DNA of 64,000 nt from Candidatus Latescibacterota bacterium (GTDB lineage: Bacteria > Latescibacterota > UBA2968 > GCA-2709665): assembly GCA_965205485.1 (NCBI GenBank), contig OZ242180.1:2496001-2560000 (forward strand). The letters run 5' to 3'. Under the pieces are notes generated by a model, which was not told the DNA's origin, searched no databases, and worked only from the letters and a program-made list of their open reading frames with translations. Each line of letters opens with the position of its first letter. Positions within the stretch are counted from its first letter, which is position 1. Position numbers and translations under genes: made by a program. Shown piece by piece: positions 41,609 through 56,001 of this stretch.

Positions 41609-41659
41609 ATACGTCATCATACCGTATGCATGTCGTAGTCAGGCCGAATGCCGGAACCT

Positions 41660-41898
41660 TCAGGCGACGGATTCATACTCGTAAACCAGGGTCTCAATCA
41701 TGCGAACGGGTCGGCATCGCTCCCACACCGCTCGCTGCAAACGCTCAACGGTCTCCGGTGAGAAGTGCTTCTCGTCCGTCTCCACGTTGACTCGCGCCGG
41801 GACGTTTTCAATCAGGAAGAGCTTGCCCATCCAACTCAATGTGGTAGGTCACCCTTTTCTTCGACCAGCATCTCGTTCCATGCGCTGTCTTCAGGCAT
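41660..41898 (-). pseudogene. YgiT-type (MqsA-like N-domain) small antitoxin, frameshifted; not captured as one ORF in the track
   Basis: Removing two extra G bases gives MPEDSAWNEMLVEEKVTYHIELDGKLFLIENVPARVNVETDEKHFSPETVERLQ...VYEYESVA. Confidence 0.7.
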
Positions 41899-42330
41899 CG
41901 TCCTCTCCCAACTCCGTCAGAAGCTGCCGTCCCCTGTCCGTCAGCCGGTATTTCTGCTTGCTGCTGGTCGGTTTGTCCGGTATGGTCATTTCCAGCCACC
42001 CGGAATCCATTAGCGGCTTGAGGTAGTTTGCCCGGAAAGTCTTCCGGTGCTTCAGTCCGAGGAACTCCATAATCTCATTTGCAAAGCGGGATCGCCTGCA
42101 ATGCCAGACAACCTGAGCGGTGACTCGTGCGGTGACTTGTGCGGTCAGGTCCTCCAGGGCGTCCGAAAGTATATGTAACATATTGTCCGGAAGGGTGTTA
42201 GAGTCTCCTTGCAGATTCCTGACAACTTGTGCGGTGACCTGGCGCCGACTTGGTGCCGATCTGGTGCCTTGACTCTTGCCCCACTCTTGCCTGACTCTTG
42301 CTTTGGCCCGGTGCGGGTTTCCAATTCTGA
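41891..42330 (-). pseudogene. Isolated C-terminal winged-helix module of Fic/RecG-C-type proteins, with TAQV repeats
   Basis: TAQVTARVTAQV...LGLKHRKTFRANYLKPLMDSGWLEMTIPDKPTSSKQKYRLT; homologous to 53214-53631; start uncertain. Confidence 0.65.
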
Positions 42331-42588
42331 GGTTGGTCTGTGGATAATTGTTGTCACCAACGAGTCTGACACTTCGATCCGTGGCGCCGCCACTCTGCCC
42401 TCGTGTCACGGGTCGCGAGATGTATCTGACGCCGATGCTGGAATTGAACGAGACCCCGAAAAGATCGCGTTTCGGAGTCTCAAATTAAGCAGTAGAAACC
42501 ATGTATGCGCGAAAGTTTGTTGAATGCCGAGTGGGAGACGCCAATACCGCGACTGGTATTAGATCAACCGTTGGCGACGGCCAGTGCA

Positions 42589-42991
42589 TTACCATGAAGG
42601 CGTCGAATTACGACGTTTCTCGCAGTAGACATCGACTATCACGTTCAGAGCGTGATTGATTTCTCCATGTTCGAAACGGCCGTGATGATTCTCGTAGAGG
42701 TACCTATAGTGCGTGTGCGAATCACGATGAGAACAAAAGACGTCACGCATGGGATACCGCTTTGCAGAAAACATCTCTTGTAGGTCTGGATTCAGGTTTT
42801 GCATGCCTGGCTGGTCTGCGCGTATCGAGTTGGGGCTCACCTTTCGCATTCTTGCTTCCAGTAATTCTCGTGTGTTCTCCCCAAGGGACTGGTACAAATT
42901 CAGTAAGTCATGGGATTGGACAGGGGTTTCGTTTTTTTCCCAGCACAGCAGCGCCTTCAGTGCGATTTCGGCCGCCAACGACAAAAGGATG
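42589..42991 (-). pseudogene. HEPN-like protein, 5'-truncated at the IS3 end
   Basis: LAAEIALKA...SHDLLNLY...HYRYLYE; the frame begins at the IS terminus with no SD. Confidence 0.6.
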
Positions 42992-43032: not shown

Positions 43033-43881
43033 TCAAGCCCATGATTTGCGGTTGTTTTCGTAGGTTACGGGCAAGTGGTATCCCAGCGCAGAATGCCTGC
43101 GGTGTGGATTATACCACCCTTCGATGTATTCGAAAAGGGATCGTTTCGCGTCGTGGATCGTGCGGAAGCAGTGGCGGTCCAGCAGCTCGCATTCGACGGT
43201 TGCGAAGAAACTCTCACACAGGGCGTTGTCAAAGCAGTCGCCGACGGATCCCATGGAGGGACGGACACCGGCCTTCTTGCAGCGCAGGCCAAAGGCCAGA
43301 GACGTATACTGCGATTCCTGGTCGGAATGATGGATCACGTTGCTGGGATGACGCTGCCACAAGGCCATATCCAGCGCGTCCAGGACCAGTTGGGTGTGCA
43401 ACCGCGTGTCCATCGCCCACCCGACAATGCGTCTGGAATAGGCATCCAGGACCACGGAAAGGCAGAGGAAGCCTGACCACGTCGGCACGTAGGTGATGTC
43501 GGCCACCCAGAGCTGATCGGGTGCAAAGACCGTAAAGTCCCGATTGACCAGATCGGCAGCGGCACTTTGGTGCTGGCTTTGCGTTGTTGTGCGCACGCCC
43601 TTGCGTCGGCTCACGCCCATCAGGCCCATCTCCCGCAGGAGCCGGGCTACGCGCTTGCGGCCCACCCGGGTGCCCTCAAACGCCAGTTCGGCGTGTATCC
43701 GCGGTGCGCCATAGGTCCCGAACGATCGCGTGTGAATCGCTGCAATACGCTCCTTGAGCACTACATCGGCTGCTGCACGCTTCGAGATGGGTCGCTTCAG
43801 CCACGCATAGCAGCCACTGGTGGAGACGCCCAGCACACGGCACTGCGTGGCCACAGGATAAAATGCCCGGTGCGCCTTCAC
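43033..43881 (-). CDS. IS3 OrfB DDE transposase
   Basis: YGAPRI, WVADITY, HHSDQ, DNALCESFF, YNPHRRHSALG. Confidence 0.95.
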   Translation of the reverse strand: MKAHRAFYPVATQCRVLGVSTSGCYAWLKRPISKRAAADVVLKERIAAIHTRSFGTYGAPRIHAELAFEGTRVGRKRVARLLREMGLMGVSRRKGVRTTTQSQHQSAAADLVNRDFTVFAPDQLWVADITYVPTWSGFLCLSVVLDAYSRRIVGWAMDTRLHTQLVLDALDMALWQRHPSNVIHHSDQESQYTSLAFGLRCKKAGVRPSMGSVGDCFDNALCESFFATVECELLDRHCFRTIHDAKRSLFEYIEGWYNPHRRHSALGYHLPVTYENNRKSWA

Positions 43882-44192
43882 GAACGCGAATCCTTCTGTG
43901 GTATCGTGTCGGTCTCCCGTGCGAACCAGGCCGCGGCTTTTGACAAAATCTCACGCTCGATGCGCAACTGCTTGTTCTCACGGCGTAACCGCGCCAGCTC
44001 CTTTCGCTCCTGCGTGGTCAGGCCGTCGGCGCGGCGACCTTCATCTCGGTCGGCCTGCGCCACCCAGCTCCGGATCGTCGGCTCCGAGGGCTCGAACTCC
44101 TTCGCCAGTTCTCGCGGCGTGCGTCCAGCTCGTACCAGCTCCACCATCTGTTGTCGAAACTCGGGCGCATACGCAGGACGGGTCTTCGGCAT
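43878..44192 (-). CDS. IS3 OrfA (HTH + leucine zipper)
   Basis: YAPEFRQQMVEL...TIRSWV...ELARLRRENKQLRIEREILSKAAAWF; GTGA overlap with orfB. Confidence 0.95.
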   Translation of the reverse strand: MPKTRPAYAPEFRQQMVELVRAGRTPRELAKEFEPSEPTIRSWVAQADRDEGRRADGLTTQERKELARLRRENKQLRIEREILSKAAAWFARETDTIPQKDSRS

Positions 44193-44330: not shown

Positions 44331-45851
44331 TCATTTTTCCTCTGTACTTTGTAGGACCTCGAATGCGACCCGTAAGTAGTTATCCTTAAGCTTCTTTACA
44401 GTGTCCGATTCCAATCTGTCTCGGCGTGCCGCCCGATGTTCGGCGACTCCATCGTAAACACAGTGGCGGAGGTAGTTCTCTATCGAGTTACCTTCGAGCA
44501 TCAGCCAATGTGGATGTTGTCTGTTCACTACAATGACCAAGTTCTGCTCGTCGATATCTTGGTTTACAAAGTACGGATCATTAGGTGAGCCGATCGCATC
44601 GATGTAAACCTTTATTGTCATATCGCTGAGACTTACAACAAAATCAGGATCTTTGTTTGAGGCGTTTTCGACTACATTTCGATTCCCTGCTTCAATCTGA
44701 GATACCGAAGGTAAAACTTCTTCCATCTCAAGTGCCTCAAGGAATTTCGGCGTTTTTAACTCCTCCTCAAGAGCTTTTATCGCTGCATCAACCTGAACGT
44801 CACTAGGACCGTGTTCCGCGGGGCGTCCCCTCCTGGCTTTACGAGCAGTCTCCATAAACGGTTTACAGTATTTGAGCAATCCTTTTTCTACAAGCTCTTC
44901 CTCTTCTCCATCCCAGTTGATTTCATCTTTGGTATGTGAGACTTCAAAATCTTCAAGATTGATTTCTCCTACTACTCGTTGATTGATTAGATCGTTTCTA
45001 CCACCTTGTCCATAAACGGTCTCGGGTCGCCAACTATCTGGCCAACCCTTTATTAGTCGCTGTCGATGTAGTATGGAAAAACCAGCCTTAGATCTGGAGC
45101 CCTTTCGTAATACACCGACCCATCCTTCAGCGACTTTTTTGGGTTCAGTGTCAATCTCGAATATGTATTCGCCTTTGTAAACAGTACCATCATTGCGCTT
45201 CAAGAAATCGTCATCTGAAAACCCTCGCCACTCTAACTCTTGGTCGTTATAGTAAAGCATCATCTGACCGGAAGAGATGTCTTTACGATAGATACTTTCA
45301 AGATACTCCTTAACTTTTGAAATAGTTCGCCCCTTAAGTGGTCGATGATGTGATGTAATCTCGATCAATGTATAGTGTTCACTTTCTGCTACATCCCTTT
45401 TACTAACAGGTGGTGACACATTCCCATCTACTACATCATTAACGTCCACCAATACTGTATACTCATTAGAATCGCGTAGCTTTGTCGTGATAATTTTCCA
45501 GTTGTCACCAATCCAACATGCCGCAGTCTTCATTCCCAGGCCGTATTGTGATCTCCCCTCGGTGTTTTGGGGCGGTACACCAACCCTCATGGCTCGCCCT
45601 AGGTCGTCATAATCCATACCCATAGCATTGTCCCGTATACGAACGAGATCTTGGTCAGTGGATATCATTACCGTAAACTGGTCTCCCTCGTTATTGAACA
45701 CTGGATCAAGAGACGAGGTATTGTCGTAGTATGATTGTGTGGAGTTATCAACGAATTCCGCTAACGCGAACCACCATTTATATGCTAAGCGACGGTAGTT
45801 AGCAAAGTTCTCGTGTCCAAATCTGATCTCTAGCGGCACAACGACCTCCAT
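44331..45851 (-). CDS. MORC-like GHKL ATPase
   Basis: ALAEFVDNS (ExxxN), DNAMGM (DxxxG), SQYGLGMKTA, YTLIEI; S5-like region (GF.I....RLI, RVVGEINL, SHTKD). Confidence 0.88.
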   Translation of the reverse strand: MEVVVPLEIRFGHENFANYRRLAYKWWFALAEFVDNSTQSYYDNTSSLDPVFNNEGDQFTVMISTDQDLVRIRDNAMGMDYDDLGRAMRVGVPPQNTEGRSQYGLGMKTAACWIGDNWKIITTKLRDSNEYTVLVDVNDVVDGNVSPPVSKRDVAESEHYTLIEITSHHRPLKGRTISKVKEYLESIYRKDISSGQMMLYYNDQELEWRGFSDDDFLKRNDGTVYKGEYIFEIDTEPKKVAEGWVGVLRKGSRSKAGFSILHRQRLIKGWPDSWRPETVYGQGGRNDLINQRVVGEINLEDFEVSHTKDEINWDGEEEELVEKGLLKYCKPFMETARKARRGRPAEHGPSDVQVDAAIKALEEELKTPKFLEALEMEEVLPSVSQIEAGNRNVVENASNKDPDFVVSLSDMTIKVYIDAIGSPNDPYFVNQDIDEQNLVIVVNRQHPHWLMLEGNSIENYLRHCVYDGVAEHRAARRDRLESDTVKKLKDNYLRVAFEVLQSTEEK

Positions 45852-45866
45852 TTCGATTTATTAAAC

Positions 45867-46649
45867 TTATAGTTCACGTAGTTGAAACCTATTCTCACCG
45901 ATACGACGCACCTCGTAGTTCCGGTCTGAAGAAACATTGAATCCGCCGGGGGCAAAAAACACTACACTGTCCATAGCACGTAAAACCTTCCAAGTATACG
46001 GCCTTTGGTCAACATACAACTGTACTTCATTCTGAATACTTGCCGGAACGGTTTCCGGTTGAACGCAGATTAGGGAATTCATCATATTCAATTTCTTAAG
46101 TCTAAAGACCCTATCCGACACCGGCGCAGGTAGATATCCTGAGATAGAAACAATTACGTCGTCGTGCTCGGATCGAAATGACTCAAGATAAGTAAGATGG
46201 GCTGAATGTTCATTTTCGATTGCTGACCACCCACTCTTCAATACAGTCCGGGAGTTTACCACTACAACCACCTTGGGCGGGATATAGTGTATTAGGTTCT
46301 TTAATGCACATAAGTCTAAAGTCGAGTCCTTCTGATGTAGTAAATCCGCATGCGTGGAATCGTATCGCCCAGTAACAAAGGTCTGAACCTGCGGTAGTAC
46401 GTGGTGTTCAAGTGAGTGATTCTCAAGCTCGATTTCAACAACAACCCACATTTTGTAGTTACGATGTACAAACGCCAAATCAGGTCTACGACGAGATCCA
46501 TGATCACCAAGAATATGCGGTGAGAAGTCAAGTATAGAGAAGTCAGGAAGTACCTTTCTCAGTTCGATTTTTACGATACTGGTATAATGTCGTTCATCTT
46601 CGTAAAAGACCTGTTCGTAGATTCGATTTCTGCGTATAAGTCGAGTCAA
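45867..46649 (-). CDS. Putative PD-(D/E)xK-superfamily nuclease (ExE variant)
   Basis: N-terminal helix with Glu, RPDLAFV...VVVEIEL..H...HVLPQ; ATGA overlap with the helicase. Confidence 0.6.
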   Translation of the reverse strand: MTRLIRRNRIYEQVFYEDERHYTSIVKIELRKVLPDFSILDFSPHILGDHGSRRRPDLAFVHRNYKMWVVVEIELENHSLEHHVLPQVQTFVTGRYDSTHADLLHQKDSTLDLCALKNLIHYIPPKVVVVVNSRTVLKSGWSAIENEHSAHLTYLESFRSEHDDVIVSISGYLPAPVSDRVFRLKKLNMMNSLICVQPETVPASIQNEVQLYVDQRPYTWKVLRAMDSVVFFAPGGFNVSSDRNYEVRRIGENRFQLREL

Positions 46650-47884
46650 TGAATAGTTCCTCGGCTCCAGGAGACGTCCGCTACACCCTCTAGATTGGTC
46701 GCTTCTCTTGACAACCGGATACGTTGATCGTCTCCGACGTATAGTGTATAAACCAATGCACGCCGTTTGCTATGTGCAGGACGAAGCACGCGTCCCAGTC
46801 GCTGGATTCTTTGACGGGTGCTAGAAGTGGAGTGCGCAACGATTGCTATGTTTGCTTCTGGTACATTCGCGCCTTCGTCGAGAGCACGACAGGTAACAAG
46901 CATGTTGACAATTCCTCGTCGAAAAAGGCGGAGGTTGTCCCTTCGGTGTGAATCTGAAAGGCTGGAGTGGTACGTCACTGAGTTCTGACCGAGACTGGCA
47001 AGTAATTCCGCAATTGACTCGACATCAGCAACACGCTCGTGGAAAACTATGACACGTTCACGTTTATGACTTAATGCCAATTTTACCGCCCATGGTACTC
47101 TCAAAGCACGTTCAGCCGATCTAGTGATTTTGGTCGACTTCGATCTGCTACTTGCGGCTAAGACAACAGAAGCACTTCCTGAAGTATCCTTTGAGTTTTT
47201 CATGCGACTTTGGAGTCGGCTTAAGTCACCCGCGCTGAATCCTATTTCGATATTCATTAAATCGAAATCTACGATCACACCGTCAGTTTTTGCTGTGCGG
47301 TAGTCGTAGTCATAAATCACAGGTCCGAGAGCAGGGGTGATTCTTGTCACGAAACCGTCGTCTGCCTCTCGCTCAGGAGTAGCAGATAACCCGAGAGTGG
47401 CTGGGACAGACGGGTCATGGTTTCCCATGAGCGCTCGACTGTTCTCAACGGCCCCGGCTCGATGGCACTCGTCGACGATAAGGAACGTTGTTCCCGAATT
47501 TGACAATTCCTGTGAGACTAATCGAGCTGTGTTTAAAACGAGGATATTAACCCGTTTGGGATGTTCCGGTTTTGAACTTCCGGAATAGCAGGCGATTTCG
47601 GTTTCATCGATATCTGTAGCATCACTAATGTCCACAAACCATTGATCTAGTAATGCTATCGTAGGCACCACAATAATGGCCTTTCCATCGGGGTATTCCG
47701 TGAAGAACCGTTTCAAGCAAAGAAACGAAAAGACTGTCTTACCACCGCCAGTAACCACACGTGCAATGCCAGTGAATTCTCTATCCCAAGCCTTAAACGC
47801 TTCAATCTGCCATCGTCTAGGGATTATCGATTGATCGAGCTGCAAGTTGTGCCCTTTCAAAAACTGTATGGTGTCTCCCGCCAC
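46646..47884 (-). CDS. SF2 helicase, XPB/Rad25-ResIII-like
   Basis: RWQ, VTGGGKT, VVPT, DECH, LSAT, LDEGANVP, QRLGRVLR. Confidence 0.92.
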   Translation of the reverse strand: MAGDTIQFLKGHNLQLDQSIIPRRWQIEAFKAWDREFTGIARVVTGGGKTVFSFLCLKRFFTEYPDGKAIIVVPTIALLDQWFVDISDATDIDETEIACYSGSSKPEHPKRVNILVLNTARLVSQELSNSGTTFLIVDECHRAGAVENSRALMGNHDPSVPATLGLSATPEREADDGFVTRITPALGPVIYDYDYRTAKTDGVIVDFDLMNIEIGFSAGDLSRLQSRMKNSKDTSGSASVVLAASSRSKSTKITRSAERALRVPWAVKLALSHKRERVIVFHERVADVESIAELLASLGQNSVTYHSSLSDSHRRDNLRLFRRGIVNMLVTCRALDEGANVPEANIAIVAHSTSSTRQRIQRLGRVLRPAHSKRRALVYTLYVGDDQRIRLSREATNLEGVADVSWSRGTIH

Positions 47885-47938
47885 AACGCGGGCATTTCAC
47901 TGCAATTTGGACTTCAAATCGTTGTAAATCAAAAACAA

Positions 47939-48922
47939 TTACTGCTTTCGGAGGTTTTTCTTACTTTTAGTGAATCGCCCAAGCGATCCATCCAGAAATT
48001 CCCGATCAGGTTCAACTGCTACCCATCTGCGCCCTAAGTCTTCTGCTGCTTTTCCTGTCGTATTACTACCAGCGAACGGATCCAGTACCAATGCATCTGA
48101 TTTGGTAAGGAATTTGATGAAGAACTCGGCGAGTCCAATCGGCATTCGGGCTGGATGCGGTCGAAGCTGATGGGTACGGCAGTAATTCAAGTAGTTTGAA
48201 CTTGCCTGCGTATTCGCTAGGGAGATCAGGTTTGACGGAATGGCTCCAGCATTATCTGTTAAGAATGAGTTTTTCCCAATATGGTGTTCAGAAGGTCGCT
48301 CCCCAGAGTTGTAACTTTTACGTACTAAGAGATCCTCCATTGCTTTACTGTATTTTGTTAATACCTGGCGGTTGTCAGCATATGGCCTGTCTGTAGGTGC
48401 CATCCACCAGAGATGTGTATATGCGTCCTTAACTCGGATGCGCTCGACATTCACCCACTGAGCTGGTCCGGGGAGTTTTGCAGGGTTGTGCCACACGAAC
48501 TGTTGGCACAGTACGAATTCGCCATGCTCCAAGAAAGCTAGTAGTGCCTGCAACGCTAACGTAGACATTACTGGCCGTCCCGGTTCCCATGCATTTCCAA
48601 GTTCTAAGACTACTGAACCTGCGGGTTTCAAAGCATTCTTGAAAAGAGGTGCAAATCCTTTGAGCCATTCCACGTATGCCTCGCCTTGTTCGTTTCCGTA
48701 GCGCTTTTTTCTATTGAGAGGAAACGGGGGTGAGGTAAAGATGAGATCGACTTGCCCTTCGAGCTCACTCGAGTAAGTACGTGACCTTAATACATCCTCA
48801 GCTAGCCCGAGTATGGATCGACCCAGTGTCGTTCTGTAGATGGTTTTAGGTCTACGTTTGCGACTATGTTTGTCCTTCGTGGAACTCTTTTCTACAACCT
48901 CATCTTCATTAGATCTATTCAC
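47939..48922 (-). CDS. Beta-class N4-cytosine DNA methyltransferase, M.PvuII-like
   Basis: TSPPF..RKK.YGN catalytic motif N-terminal; WHNPAKLP, HPARMP; DPFAGSNTTG SAM motif C-terminal. Confidence 0.9.
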   Translation of the reverse strand: MNRSNEDEVVEKSSTKDKHSRKRRPKTIYRTTLGRSILGLAEDVLRSRTYSSELEGQVDLIFTSPPFPLNRKKRYGNEQGEAYVEWLKGFAPLFKNALKPAGSVVLELGNAWEPGRPVMSTLALQALLAFLEHGEFVLCQQFVWHNPAKLPGPAQWVNVERIRVKDAYTHLWWMAPTDRPYADNRQVLTKYSKAMEDLLVRKSYNSGERPSEHHIGKNSFLTDNAGAIPSNLISLANTQASSNYLNYCRTHQLRPHPARMPIGLAEFFIKFLTKSDALVLDPFAGSNTTGKAAEDLGRRWVAVEPDREFLDGSLGRFTKSKKNLRKQ

Positions 48923-49036: not shown

Positions 49037-51187
49037 TCATCTGCACACCAAGGTACCAGCATGCTTTCCTAGTGCCGATCGCCGTTGAACACGTTCGGCC
49101 GCGTCATGAACCAACTGCTCCTGGGCTTTTTCGCATAGGTCTGGTGGCGGTTCGGCGCCTTCGTCCACGGGTTCGAATTCACGCGCCTTCTCCTGAATGC
49201 GATCAGTATCGATGGCGGCCAGTAGATCGCCAACGATTTGAGTGAGTTCGGTGCCGCCGGCCTGCTCCTTGATTCGTTCTTTCTCGGTGGAATCGAGTTG
49301 TTGATCAAGCCGCGCGAGGCGCCCGGCGAGAGAACTCACCGTGTCTTCATCGTGGGCGCCCATCATCACGCCCATCGCGAGGTCCTTTAGGGGCACTGTC
49401 GGCTGGGTGATGAGCGGTTGGCTGGCGGTCTTGAGCGACGTCGTGACACCGACCGCGTCCACGATGACATAGTGGGTCTTGCTGGTAGTAGCTGAAGGAG
49501 AGACTTTTTTGAGGTCGTCGTAATCAAGAGTACGGGTCCCGCGACCCTTCATCTGCTCGAAATAGTTGCGGCTACGCACATCACGCATAAATAGCAAGCA
49601 TTCGAGTGGTCTGACATCGGTGCCAGTTGCAATCATATCCACCGTGACAGCGATACGCGGGTAATAGTCGTTTCGATACTGGGCGAGGACAGTTTTCGGT
49701 TCTTCTTTGGATCTGTATGTGACCTTCTTGCAGAACTCATTGCCTTCGCCGAACTCCTCACGCACAGTCTGAATGATGTCGTCTGCATGGCTGTCCGTCT
49801 TGGCGAAAATCAGCGTCTTCGGAACTTCGCCACGGCCAGGGAAAATCTCAGGCAAATTGCCGCGGAATGTGCCGATGACGGTACGGATCTGATCCGGATT
49901 GACGACGGCGCGGTCCAGTTCTCGTCCTGAATAGACAAGCGCTTCGTCCTGAATCTCCCAGCGTTTGCGCCGCGTGAGCCGCTCTCTACGTTGGACTGCT
50001 TGGCGTGCCCTGATCTGGCCCCCGCGCTCTGTCCTTTCCGTCTCAATCACATAGACTTCGTTGCCGACGTTGACGCCGTCTGCGACGGCTTGATCATGCG
50101 TATATTCGCTGACGATGTTTTTCTTAAAGAACCCGTATGTGCGGTTGTCCGGTGTGGCGGTGAGGCCAATGAGGAATGCGTCGAAGTATTCGAGGACCTG
50201 GCGCCAGAGGTTATAGATCGACCGGTGGCATTCGTCAATGACGATGAAATCAAAAAACTCGGGCGGAATCTTGTCGTTGTAGACAACCGGCACCGGTTGA
50301 CTGGGTTGCGTCAATTCCGCCGGGTTGATCTCTTCCGCTGCTTCGTCTATCCCCTCGCCCTTAAGGAGGGAATACATGCGCTGGATGGTGCTGATACAAA
50401 CCTGGCTATCGTTGGCAACATAGGACGATTTGAGACGCTGCACGTTGTAGAGTTCAGTGAATTTGCGATTGTCGTCGTTCGGCACGTACGCCATGAATTC
50501 CTGCTCGGCCTGTTCACCCAAATGCCTGGTGTCTACGAGAAAGAGGACCCTCTTGGCGTCCGCGTGTTTGAGCAGCCGGTAAATCGACGTGATGGCGGTG
50601 TAGGTCTTGCCAGAGCCGGTGGCCATCTGAATGAGTGCGCGCGGACGGATGTCTTTAAACGATGCTTCGAGATTCTCGATGGCGCGTATCTGGCACGCCC
50701 TGAATCCGGCAGGGTTGACCTCAGGGAGTGTCTGAAGCCTGGCGCGAAGCGAGTCGTCATTTGCGTTCCATTCCGCCAGGGTCTCCGGTCGCGGGAAGTT
50801 GAATATCTCCCGCGAACGAGGTTTCGGATCGCGTCCATCGGTAAACCGCGTAAGCACACCCGTAGATTCGTATACGAACGGCAGGGGTTCTCTGTTTTTG
50901 ACCCATTTGAGTTCGGCAGCAGCATAAGTGCCCGATTGCGATTCGACGGTCGTGATATTGTGACCCCATTCTTCCGGCTTGGCCTCGACAACACCGACGG
51001 CCTGCTTGTCAACAAAGAGAACGTAGTCGGCTGGGCCAACGTCCGTCTGATATTCGCGGACAGCGATACCGCGCCCCGCGCTGAAGTCAAGCTTGTTTTT
51101 CGACTGTACGTTCCAGCCGGCCTGAACCAACATCGCGTCGATTTTGTCGCGTGCCTTTTGTTCCGGAGTGCGGTAAATGTCTGTCAC
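49037..51187 (-). pseudogene. hsdR: Type I restriction endonuclease subunit R, 3'-truncated
   Basis: ADY..VEAK nuclease, MATGSGKT, DECH, TAT, ATGTD, QMKGRG; similarity appears to end near 49080; no hsdM/hsdS follow. Confidence 0.8.
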
Positions 51188-51374: not shown

Positions 51375-51949
51375 CATCTGTCATACATCAGGTGTAGCAC
51401 GCGGCCGTCAGTCTAAAACCGATAGCGCTATTTCAAGGCGAAGTCAAACGGCGATATGCGCACCAGGACGAGGTGAACCACGAAAAACAAAAGGAAAAAG
51501 GAAGAAGGAAAAAGGAAGAAATAACGGCAGGATAGTCTCGTAGACCGTCGCCGGCATTCAAGATGTATGCGAGTGCCGGCGTGGTAGATCGACTGGAATT
51601 GACCCGATTAAAGGCGAATGATCCGGCCTGATTAGGCCGATCTTCAACTGGCCTGGTTAGGCCGATCCTGCATTGGCCGCATCTGGGCGATCATTGACAG
51701 AGTGCGCAAGGAAGAAATAAAGGTCGGACAATCGCGTGGCCCGTCGTCAGCATCCACGACGTCTGCGATTGCCTGCCCGTTACTTGAGACCCGTTCCGCT
51801 CGGGAACACCAGAATAAGGGCGAATAAATGGAGAAGGAAAAAGGCGACATCCGGAAGGAGAAAGGAAGAAGAGATGGGGGTTATGCAACAACGACGATAC
51901 CGTCAGGAAATCAATTGCTGTTCAACCGCGTTTCGTTTTTTGCGATACG

Positions 51950-52186
51950 CTACCCAAAGTTATCAAGCCTTTCGTCTATGCGTTCAATCGCTCGCAACAA
52001 TCGAAATTCAACCTGTTTGATTGTCTCTTTATTCTCTTTAATTTCTGCCATTAAACGAGATTCCGAAGCGCTCACCATCCATTGCACAACGGCGAGGTTG
52101 ACACCGACTAACAAAACAAGAACACTGCCAAAGGAAACAGCTACTTTTATCGCATTCCCCCATTTGGACCATAGGCTGTTACTCAT
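51950..52186 (-). CDS. Small single-TM coiled-coil protein
   Basis: VAVSFGSVLVLLVGVNLAVV then SESRLMAEIKENKETIKQVE...IDERLD; SD AAGGGG. Confidence 0.7.
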   Translation of the reverse strand: MSNSLWSKWGNAIKVAVSFGSVLVLLVGVNLAVVQWMVSASESRLMAEIKENKETIKQVEFRLLRAIERIDERLDNFG

Positions 52187-52522
52187 GATTTCCCCTTATT
52201 TTCTTGATACAAGAGTGCGTCGTGCGCATTTTCGCTGAACCATGTCATTAGTGTGTTCCGCAAGTTGTCTTTTGCGAAAAAGTAAGGTAACTCGGTTCGA
52301 CAAAGTACGGTGGCCAACGCGGGTTTTTTGTAAACCCACTATTTTGAAAAAAGTACCCAATCGGATTTATCCTGTCAAGTGCATATGATGAAATTTGGGG
52401 GAATTGCAGCGAGCATGAAGAGAGGTACGCTGAGGAAGAATGATGAGCGCAAGCAGAGGCAGGATGTGAAGGGGTATTGGAAGCGGATACCAACCGAGCA
52501 AGAAGATGGTAGAGCTCATCAA

Positions 52523-52632
52523 TCACGCATTCTTCGTTCTGCCTTTTTCCTTCTTCCTTGCCTTGCGTCAGCCTGTGTTTCGTCGTCTCTCAATAGATAC
52601 CGCAGCAGGACATTGGTGTCGATTGCGATCAA
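52523..52632 (-). pseudogene. VapC/PIN toxin N-terminal fragment
   Basis: MIAIDTNVLLRYLLRDDETQA, then runs into a heptamer tract and stops; overlaps the AbrB stop codon. Confidence 0.75.
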
Positions 52633-52865
52633 GGCGTTCGGTCCCGCTTTCTCTCTATGGCGTCCTGGCGCGACTCCTCGTCTGAAACCGTCGGATCTCC
52701 TTCAAGATGCGCCAGGCATCCCCAGGCGCTACCGGGCTCTAGGCGGACGATGGTGATGCGGCCATCGGCCACGAAACTCAGGCACTCGTCGCCTGGCTCG
52801 ATGCCTGCTAAACGGCACTGATCGGCCGGGAGCGTGATCTGTCGCTTGGCGCTGAGTTTGGGCGA
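52629..52865 (-). CDS. AbrB/MazE-family antitoxin; start codon apparently damaged
   Basis: PKLSAKRQITLP....AGIEPGD; GGAGA is followed by TCG where a start codon is expected. Confidence 0.7.
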   Translation of the reverse strand, partial: SPKLSAKRQITLPADQCRLAGIEPGDECLSFVADGRITIVRLEPGSAWGCLAHLEGDPTVSDEESRQDAIERKRDRTP

Positions 52866-53213
52866 GATTTCTCCAATCCAGTAAAGGAAAAAGGAAGAAG
52901 GAAAAAGGAAGAAATACAAGCAGGAAAATCGCGTGGACTGCCGCCGGGATTCACGATGTGTGTGGAGTTGCCCGTTACTTGAGACCCGTTCCGCTCGGGA
53001 AGACGCGAATAAAGGAAAAAGGAAGAAATCTGGCCCAAATCACCTGCTGACCTGTCGCCCGCATTCTCTGTTTCTCTCTACCTATTGCCCTTCCGTGGCC
53101 AGTCCCTCATCACGTGTAGCATTCTGCGACGGTTTCGGTGCGCTGTTTGGCACATTCAACCCGATCACGCAATTCTCCCTTCCTCCTTACTTTGTAGACG
53201 ATCGGCGCGTTTT

Positions 53214-53631
53214 TCATTTCGCGTCGTTCTTTCTCTTGATCTGTTCCACGAATGCCTCGCCTCTAGGAGTACGGCGGTAGCGCTGGTGGCGGCTCGTGGG
53301 CTTGTCCGGGAGGGTCATTTCAATCAATCCGGCCTCCAGGGCAGGATTCAGGTATGATTCGATGAAATGGGGCCGGCCTTTGAGTTCCAATCCTGCCTGG
53401 ATACTGGCGCGGCTCATCTCTCCCGTGAGGACAGCCACCAGTTGCTGGATTTGGTCCGTGACCTGGTCTGTATCTTGTGGGGTATCTTGTTGGGCGTCTT
53501 GTGGGGTATCTTGTTGGGTGTCGTGACCTTTCCCAATAATTTTCAATGACTTATCTTGTCCTGTATCTGTATCTTGTTCCGTATCTTGTTCCGTCGCGGG
53601 GAGTAAAGCCCGCTCATTCACTGGCGTGAGC
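53214..53631 (-). pseudogene. Second isolated Fic/RecG-C-type C-terminal winged-helix module, with 12-bp (TxQD) tandem repeats
   Basis: TEQDTEQD...TPQDAQQDTPQDTDQVTDQ...YLNPALEAGLIEMTLPDKPTSRHQRYR; 5' end abuts a heptamer repeat. Confidence 0.7.
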
Positions 53632-53926
53632 AAAGGAAAAAGGAAGAAGGAAAAAGGAAGGAATAAAGGCAGGATGATCGCTTGGACTGCCGCCAGCATT
53701 CACGATGTATGCGATTGCCTGCGACTTACTTGAGCCCCGTTGCGCTCTGGAACACCGGAATATTGGCGAATAAATGTAGAAGGAGAAAGGAAGAAGGAAA
53801 AAGGAAGAAATATCGGCAGGATAATCGCGTGGTCCGTCGCCGTGAATGACTATGTCTGCGATAACCTGTCAATTCCAGAAATCGCATTTTCTCCTTCTAC
53901 CTTCTTCCTTCTTCGTTCTTCCTTTT

Positions 53927-54294
53927 TTATGTGCCGCGTTCATTGTTGCTCTTCGCCTTGCGTATTGAAGCGACGAAAATCGCGGTCAATTCGCCGCATT
54001 CATCTGTCAGGCCTGCAAGTCGCTCATCGGAGACGATTCCTGAGTCGCCGAGCAGTTCAAGCCAATACCCGGTTTCTTCAATCTCCTTCAAACATTCGCC
54101 AACCTTTGAGATGAATTCCGCTTTGCTCCGCGCGCGATATGCTTCCCGGTAGTTTGCCCCCACAGACGTTCCGGAACGAATCATCTGCCTGCCTATGACT
54201 TGAGCCTCGGTCTGCTTTGAAAGGCCCGAATACAGGCGAATGATCCGGAGTGCAAACTCCTTCGTCCGGGTCCGAAGATCAACCACTTCTTCCT
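53927..54294 (-). CDS. Four-helix-bundle protein (23S-IVP/bAvd-like fold)
   Basis: DLRTRTKEFALRII, QMIRSGTSVGANYREA..ARSKAEFISK, KEIEETGYWLELL; start position approximate. Confidence 0.9.
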
Positions 54295-54652: not shown

Positions 54653-55204
54653 TCAACTGGATGGATGACCGACTGCCTTATCCACCAGCGGTGCCAGTTC
54701 GCTCCACGCTGCGAGAATGGTCTTCACCAGGTAGTCGCGGTACTCCTTGAGGTTGTCACCCTCCCAGTACCTGTCTCTTGGTGGATCCACGTTTCGATAG
54801 GCTGGCCACCAAGCGGTCGACTCTGGATAATCAGGACGTGCATCCTTCGCGAAATGCACTCTGTAGTGTTTCACGTTCGTCCTGACTCCGCAGATCAACC
54901 CTCCATCTTCAGAGAACAGCGCGGGCTTGCTATACCATCCCAGTCTCACATCCGGCTCTTCGTCACCCTCGGGCCAATCCTTGCGCCGCAGGCCCAACCC
55001 AGAAAAGTTCTCGTCAGTTAGAAACGCCTCGACACCGTTATAGGTGATATTATCGTTCCTCAGGGCCCACTCGAGATCGCCCTCGAGACTGCGGTAGAAG
55101 TGATTCACGAACTCCGACACTTCGTCTACCAACTCAGCCCATTCCATGATCTGCTTCTCGTGCTCGAAATAGAACTTGATCCGTTCGTCTTCGATCCGAT
55201 TCAT
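54653..55204 (-). CDS. Hypothetical protein coupled to the upstream nuclease
   Basis: 183-aa Trp-rich ORF with ATGA overlap. Confidence 0.65.
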   Translation of the reverse strand: MNRIEDERIKFYFEHEKQIMEWAELVDEVSEFVNHFYRSLEGDLEWALRNDNITYNGVEAFLTDENFSGLGLRRKDWPEGDEEPDVRLGWYSKPALFSEDGGLICGVRTNVKHYRVHFAKDARPDYPESTAWWPAYRNVDPPRDRYWEGDNLKEYRDYLVKTILAAWSELAPLVDKAVGHPSS

Positions 55205-56001
55205 CCGAACTGCTCCTTGAGTGTCCGTGAATAGTTCCTGACGACTTCTACGGCCGGTGCAACGCCGGTCTTGTTTCGTGATTCGTTTAATGCCGTGTCC
55301 AACATCGCCCGGACCTTGGGCCAGGAGAGGGTCTTGAAAGCGCGTTGGGCGCATGGCGTGGTTGCCGTATGCGGCTTGCGGCCATCGGGGGTCAGGAACA
55401 GGAACAGTGGCTCATTTTCGTTCTTGAAGTTCTCGTACAAGTCGTCGCACTGGCTCGGCTGTTCTGACGCGTCGACCTTGTTCTCGATGACGAGCGTGAA
55501 GTTCTCGCCCCACACGACGAGGTCGGCCTCTCTGTCGTTCCGCCACTCAGAGAACGCCACCTTCCGAACTGCAAGTTGCGCCGGCACAGTCTCTCCAGTG
55601 CAATGTTCCACGAAGCGCCTGACCAGCCCCGAACCCAACCCGTGCCGTGCCGTCGGCGTCAAGAGCCACAGAAGCACGCGAGAATGGGTGTTCTCGTGGC
55701 GGGCCAGGCCCACGATATCGAGGAAGTCTGATGGCCCGGTCAGCCATAGCCCGTCCGAAACGAGGCGGTCTTGCTGGCAGCGCATCTCCGCCATGGTCTC
55801 ATGCCACTAGGCAAGGAGGGTTTTCGTCCGACGCGCGGCGATCTCGCCCCAACTGTACTCCATTGTCCGAACAGCGCTACGCCAGTCGGCCAGGAGCGCT
55901 TTTGTCTGGCGCAAGGCGATCTCGTCCCATTCGCGCTCCATCGCACGAATGTTCACTTTCCACGAGGGGACTTGATTGTCTTGTGAGGCCATTAAGGGCA
56001 T
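55201..56001 (-). CDS. PD-(D/E)xK nuclease (PDDEXK_4-like) with an in-frame TAG at 55807-55809
   Basis: ENTHSRVLLWLLTP...HGLG, EW...ADLVV...IENKV...EQPSQ; upstream ORF 55807-56001 is in the same frame. Confidence 0.75.

Follow-up and report, generated by a model that had tools for sequence, protein, structure and literature searches.

What does a bacterium do with a compact operon that joins a MORC ATPase to a DNA methyltransferase (MTase)? The question is raised by a four-gene cassette in a 64,000-nucleotide stretch of a Candidatus Latescibacterota genome (contig OZ242180.1, positions 2,496,001 to 2,560,000; hereafter the window), which a first-pass annotation had put forward as an undescribed defence operon encoding an N4-methylcytosine (m4C) MTase, an XPB-like helicase, a nuclease-like protein (open reading frame 3, ORF3) and a MORC ATPase. 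Prokaryotic MORC operons were proposed as restriction systems in 2008, and a 2026 preprint still calls this role proposed. We conclude that the cassette is a real, widespread variant of the predicted kind and that its MORC is a bacterial relative of the animal MORC ATPases. With a probability of about 60%, we read it as a mobile, cross-phylum, ATP-dependent defence of the restriction-modification (RM) type that acts on unmarked DNA. New here are the fixed nuclease-MORC core, the optional helicase, the exchangeable methylase and the displacement of a type I system at the window locus. At 4.6 kb (~3.3 kb where the helicase gene is missing), the cassette is compact and intact, its methylase has a well-studied relative, and natural versions exist both with the helicase and lacking it. 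It therefore offers a direct test of bacterial MORC function, and it bears on whether a methylation-responsive role of MORC predates eukaryotic gene silencing.

The four gene products

The identities first proposed for the MTase, helicase and MORC ATPase were supported by our searches. The MTase matched Pfam PF01555 (E 3e-31) and the PADLOC model MTase_II PDLC03323 (3e-83). Its best PDB match was M.PvuII (1boo, E 8e-70 over residues 28-319), with the runner-up at 2e-8, and it is 41.5% identical to the Proteus vulgaris plasmid enzyme. The TSPPF motif IV precedes the DPFAGS motif I, and each motif was present in 38 of 39 homologues. On this basis the protein is predicted to be a beta-class enzyme of the M.PvuII family that yields N4-methylcytosine.

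The MORC gene encodes a true prokaryotic MORC, with a GHKL domain followed by an S5 domain and a C-terminal domain (residues ~400-504). The GHKL residues E32, N36 and D74 were invariant in 35/35 sequences, and the N-box and G2 box were found in 36 and 38 of 40 homologues, respectively, the misses being broken copies. The S5 signature GhXhhpXXRhl, which reads GFSILHRQRLI in the window protein, was present in 37/40 homologues. Invariant residues of the C-terminal domain are N443, H446, P447, C464, D467 and E471.

The helicase consists of ResIII and Helicase_C domains only, and its intact homologues (~396-424 amino acids) likewise lack a nuclease domain. The best PDB matches of its profile were to archaeal XPB (E 1e-45). 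Walker A, DExH and motif VI were found in 35, 37 and 39 of 39 homologues, with most misses in truncated copies, and by sequence the protein is assigned to the XPB-like superfamily 2 (SF2) type. Its best PADLOC match was PbeA (2e-54), beginning at profile position 248, which indicates that the N-terminal part of PbeA is absent from the cassette helicase.

ORF3 had no sequence match in Pfam, PADLOC, NCBIfam or PDB. Its predicted fold nevertheless supports the nuclease suspected at first pass: residues 1-177 are modelled as a PD-(D/E)xK (PD-ExE) nuclease fold and residues 178-260 as a small B3-like barrel, and the closest folds to the protein include NucS, Can2/Card1, HamA and SduA. The EIE motif that had drawn attention (E72-x-E74) is invariant in 136/136 family members, as are E19, D57 and Q87 in the family, and H78 and H83 occur in 134/136. 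With 442 clusters at 50% identity, ORF3 defines an unannotated, predicted nuclease family missed by PADLOC, Pfam and NCBIfam. The first-pass statement that the operon has no obvious classical type II restriction enzyme holds in that ORF3 has no known type II homologue, but the protein appears, from its predicted nuclease fold and B3-like domain, to be the missing restriction-enzyme-like subunit. Unlike a classical stand-alone type II endonuclease, it is almost always paired with MORC.

Distribution and the conserved core

The cassette is syntenic in at least 10 bacterial phyla, so the expectation that its genes co-occur in unrelated genomes was borne out. Among 41 genome loci anchored on the ORF3 nuclease, MORC was present in 40, the helicase in 39 and an M.PvuII-like MTase in 39; the two loci without the latter carry an alpha-class SPPY MTase instead. 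When metagenome loci were anchored on MORC, the nuclease was found in 63 of the 64 with at least 900 bp of upstream sequence. Across 76 distinct loci, the helicase was present in 62 and absent in 14, and an MTase from one of two unrelated SPP(Y/F) families was present in 72, even where relocated or inverted; in six loci, another SPP(Y/F) enzyme had been substituted for the MTase rather than the gene being lost. Pairwise identities (kin not being independent) correlated at 0.85 for nuclease and MORC, 0.71 for helicase and nuclease and 0.67 for helicase and MORC, and the MTase tree was discordant. The four genes do travel together, as first thought, but not as a fixed set: some lineages do without the helicase, and the methylase is exchangeable, which leaves the nuclease and MORC as the core.

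There was no fifth conserved gene in the 41 loci, and a HEPN-like ORF in the window was not conserved with the cassette. The ORF3 family was found in 0/60 relatives of the host and the MORC family in only one of 168 genomes of the host phylum, the window's own (some genomes in these sets are incomplete). Searches of mobile collections returned no match to the ORF3 nuclease in plasmids and none to the MORC in phages. Neighbours at other cassette loci include ThsB-TIR, DrmE, Mrr_cat, MTaX1-HNH and DUF4238, supporting the suggested defence-hotspot context.

Several loci depart from the usual arrangement. In six of the 41 genome loci (L009, L018, L026, L033, L035 and L042), the MORC gene is split, interrupted by an insertion sequence (IS) or lost with the methylase mostly intact, which suggests that the effector is often inactivated, although some cases may be sequencing errors. 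At helicase-less loci (L057:1278-4774, L119:1686-5191, L099:5972-9268 and L114:8813-12109), a second, larger GHKL-like protein of 750-769 amino acids adjoins the MTase. L098:137-7509 holds two related cassettes in tandem, with the altered order MORC-MTase-helicase-nuclease followed by a second nuclease-MORC pair. An apparent nuclease-MORC fusion was seen at one locus only (L040) and is probably a frameshift; it was not used as evidence.

The methylases also occur in other company. In L031:3012-6603, the helicase-nuclease-MORC trio is immediately preceded by Mrr_cat, an M.PvuII-like MTase and an MTaX1-HNH nuclease, an arrangement in which one methylase may serve two effectors. Beside the trio in L008, L040, L063, L092, L096 and L121 (L008 and L040 being actinomycete records), two ParB-like genes are followed by an alpha-class SPPY MTase (for example, L063:578-3758), and in L040 a PbeA-like helicase comes after this block; the ParB-like pair and the SPPY MTase are possibly a modification module of their own. 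A methylase-Pbe-type pairing occurs on an Aurantiacibacter plasmid (L138:5010-10969), where the gene for an M.PvuII-family MTase is immediately followed downstream by those for a PbeA-like helicase, a small protein and an AAA ATPase.

Known systems and candidate mechanisms

The cassette matched no system in PADLOC or NCBIfam, but, contrary to the first-pass annotation, its class is not wholly undescribed: the cassette represents a variant of the MORC RM operons with Rad25-like helicases and methylases that Iyer, Abhiman and Aravind predicted computationally in 2008 (PMC2292703). With their type 1 operons it shares a true MORC with the family motif, a Rad25/XPB-like helicase, a methylase, a restriction-fold nuclease and a patchy spread in hotspots; the paper also describes a minority of operons in which a helicase-less MORC accompanies a methylase or nuclease. 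The type 1 helicase, however, is "commonly fused" to a nuclease of the restriction-fold or HKD kind, whereas the cassette has a minimal helicase and a separate predicted PD-ExE plus B3-like protein; the text of that paper places VP1/RAV (B3) proteins with SNF2-type operons (PMC2292703). Our comparison rests on the main text, and the exact cassette may be drawn in its Fig. 2 or supplement. In the literature search, which most subscription journals lay outside, this gene set turned up neither under a name nor in an experimental test.

Other systems share parts of the cassette. Like the ATP-dependent restriction systems CglI and NgoAVII, it combines an MTase and a separate SF2 motor with a nuclease subunit, here a predicted one, whose C-terminal part is a B3-like domain (PMC5861437, PMC4267653), and the predicted layout of ORF3 parallels R.CglI, R.NgoAVII and BfiI (PMC5861437). 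A further known MORC system, with its operon on two plasmids, has a MORC homologous to that of the window over its whole length (29% identity). A GHKL ATPase is coupled to a nuclease, as here, in VcSduA (paraMORC3/Shedu type I-D, PMC12137116) and in R.HgiDII-type restriction enzymes (PMC2441816), but these are single fused polypeptides, and the cassette has no DUF4263 or HgiDII-family match. Phage defence by VcSduA, in which the nuclease is of the PD-(D/E)xK type, requires both activities (PMC12137116). PbeABCD has a related helicase core and can adjoin MTases (PMC6459918), but PbeB, PbeC and PbeD are absent from the cassette. The MTase family is shared with the PvuII type II system, but the cassette has no stand-alone endonuclease with a known type II homologue. 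We rejected Mza, for which there was a weak MzaB match (E 9e-5 in NCBIfam, 0.0045 in PADLOC) and no other Mza model among the matches listed, and DISARM, BREX, Hachiman, Dpd and type I/III/IV systems, which gave generic helicase or weak matches only in PADLOC and NCBIfam (for the helicase, among the best 25 of 37). SspFGH, described as having Walker A and FtsK-like proteins, does not fit either and was absent from the matches listed.

If the cassette is an RM-type defence, the MTase would mark self with m4C at one fixed site, and its full-length likeness to M.PvuII makes CAGCTG or a related sequence the probable target. The core effector would consist of the nuclease and MORC: the B3-like domain would hold DNA, and the MORC dimer, closing under ATP, would license or position the PD-ExE site on unmarked DNA. 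The XPB-like helicase may be an accessory motor, translocating on or opening DNA for the nuclease. We favour this reading most of all because an SPP(Y/F) methylase is almost always kept, and swapped rather than lost, and because a type I system was displaced (see below); the low GC content, the single occurrence in the phylum and the position in place of hsdRSM also support it. Some observations weigh against it. CAGCTG, which we take to be the PvuII site, occurs in the host genome at 0.70 of expectation (6th lowest of 64 palindromes), but AGCT is generally low, and across 75 cassettes whose MTase is M.PvuII-like the site fell outside the 20 lowest palindromes relative to codon-shuffled nulls, so that neither site-avoidance test gave a signal. 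In contrast to the conserved MTase, the B3-like domain is small and varies, and no MTase lies near the nuclease-MORC pairs L049 and L080.

These MTase-less pairs and the variable B3-like domain, together with the discordant MTase tree, speak for a sensor-effector that acts independently of methylation and would be a split counterpart of VcSduA/Shedu: MORC would sense DNA ends or a phage product and free a non-specific nuclease, with the MTase as a loosely tied companion. Near-invariance is confined to the nuclease-MORC pair, which, like the nearest folds of ORF3, fits this scheme as well. Retention of the MTase in 72/76 loci, its exchange for another SPP(Y/F) enzyme and the tight packing of the four genes in the window argue otherwise, and we consider the scheme quite improbable. 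We also think it unlikely that the cassette imposes a methylation-gated replication block, in which MORC, helicase and nuclease nick, clamp or compact unmarked DNA in the manner of PbeABCD, SspFGH or BREX. PbeA is the helicase's top PADLOC match, the plasmid described above places the same MTase family next to a PbeA-like helicase and its neighbouring AAA ATPase, PbeABCD stops replication without degrading DNA and is frequently found beside MTases (PMC6459918), and eukaryotic MORCs compact DNA, according to a title cited in the Tiamat preprint; yet the full acidic set of the nuclease is invariant in 136/136 members, and the other Pbe proteins are missing. That the genes have no part in defence, and instead make up a selfish addiction module or repair deaminated methylcytosine in DNA in the manner of XPB-Bax1 or NucS/MutL, is very unlikely in view of the patchy distribution, the defence neighbours and the replaced type I RM system; repair genes are usually vertically inherited. 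Finally, and tentatively, the cassette might encode a minimal effector of two proteins in which the free-standing MORC itself reads methylation state and gates a nuclease without sequence specificity of its own, the m4C methylases being interchangeable and the XPB motor optional; H446/C464/D467/E471 may form a metal site in MORC's C-terminal domain, which is zincin-like. Doubtful as it is, this would, if true, be the simplest biochemical model for an ancestral methylation-responsive job of MORC ATPases.

The locus and its surroundings

The four genes are intact and co-oriented, as first described, and lie between a truncated hsdR and an IS3. They are AT-richer than the host, at 45.9% GC against 59.9% genome-wide, a value as low being found in 1 of 1116 bins of 4.6 kb (0.0009), and all four are single-copy in the host genome. 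The reported gaps of 54 bp (MTase/helicase) and 15 bp (ORF3/MORC) are correct, but the 4-bp helicase/ORF3 overlap is TTGA with a TTG start, not ATGA. Homologue N-termini and ribosome-binding-like sequences suggest that the helicase more likely starts at TTG 47845 and MORC at GTG 45839.

Features of the cassette locus (window positions)
Feature	Position	Strand	Remarks
MTase gene	47939-48922	minus	327 aa
XPB-like helicase gene	46646-47884	minus	412 aa
ORF3, predicted nuclease gene	45867-46649	minus	260 aa
MORC ATPase gene	44331-45851	minus	506 aa
Truncated type I hsdR	49037-51187	minus	context, outside the system; left junction of the replacement near 49079
IS3 orfA/orfB	43033-44192		IS3 label from sequence features, no family search
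Small HEPN-like ORF	42589-42984		Pfam HEPN E 0.005, below cut-off; downstream of IS3, inside replaced segment
Replacing segment	42380-49078		cassette, IS3 and small HEPN-like ORF

A long match to the window hsdR was present in 4 of 14 congeners (G006, G009, G011 and G013), and in all four the gene is intact (950 amino acids) and followed by hsdS-like and hsdM-like genes. Homology of the window to the congeners stops near 49079 and, against G006, picks up again at 41643-42379, indicating that ~6.7 kb took the place of ~9.5 kb in which the congeners carry the remainder of the type I system (the hsdR 3' end, hsdS and hsdM) along with neighbouring genes. No close hsdS or hsdM homologue (>45% identity) is left in the host genome. 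We conclude that the cassette was horizontally acquired and displaced an older type I restriction system here. Three short-read runs of a single sample, which may include the source sample, gave contigs across the hsdR/MTase junction, and in the same runs 13 of the 15 variants listed in the MORC gene were synonymous (a further 139 variants over the stretch lay outside the listing).

The same hotspot holds, at 54653-55794, a PDDEXK_4 protein fragment (PADLOC PDC-S26, E 1e-22, N-terminal half) followed by a 233-amino-acid ORF. Upstream of hsdR, at 51480-53960, dispersed purine-rich repeats, variants of AAAGGAAAAAGGAAGAA inside a longer repeated unit, surround small ORFs; congeners carry these repeats too.
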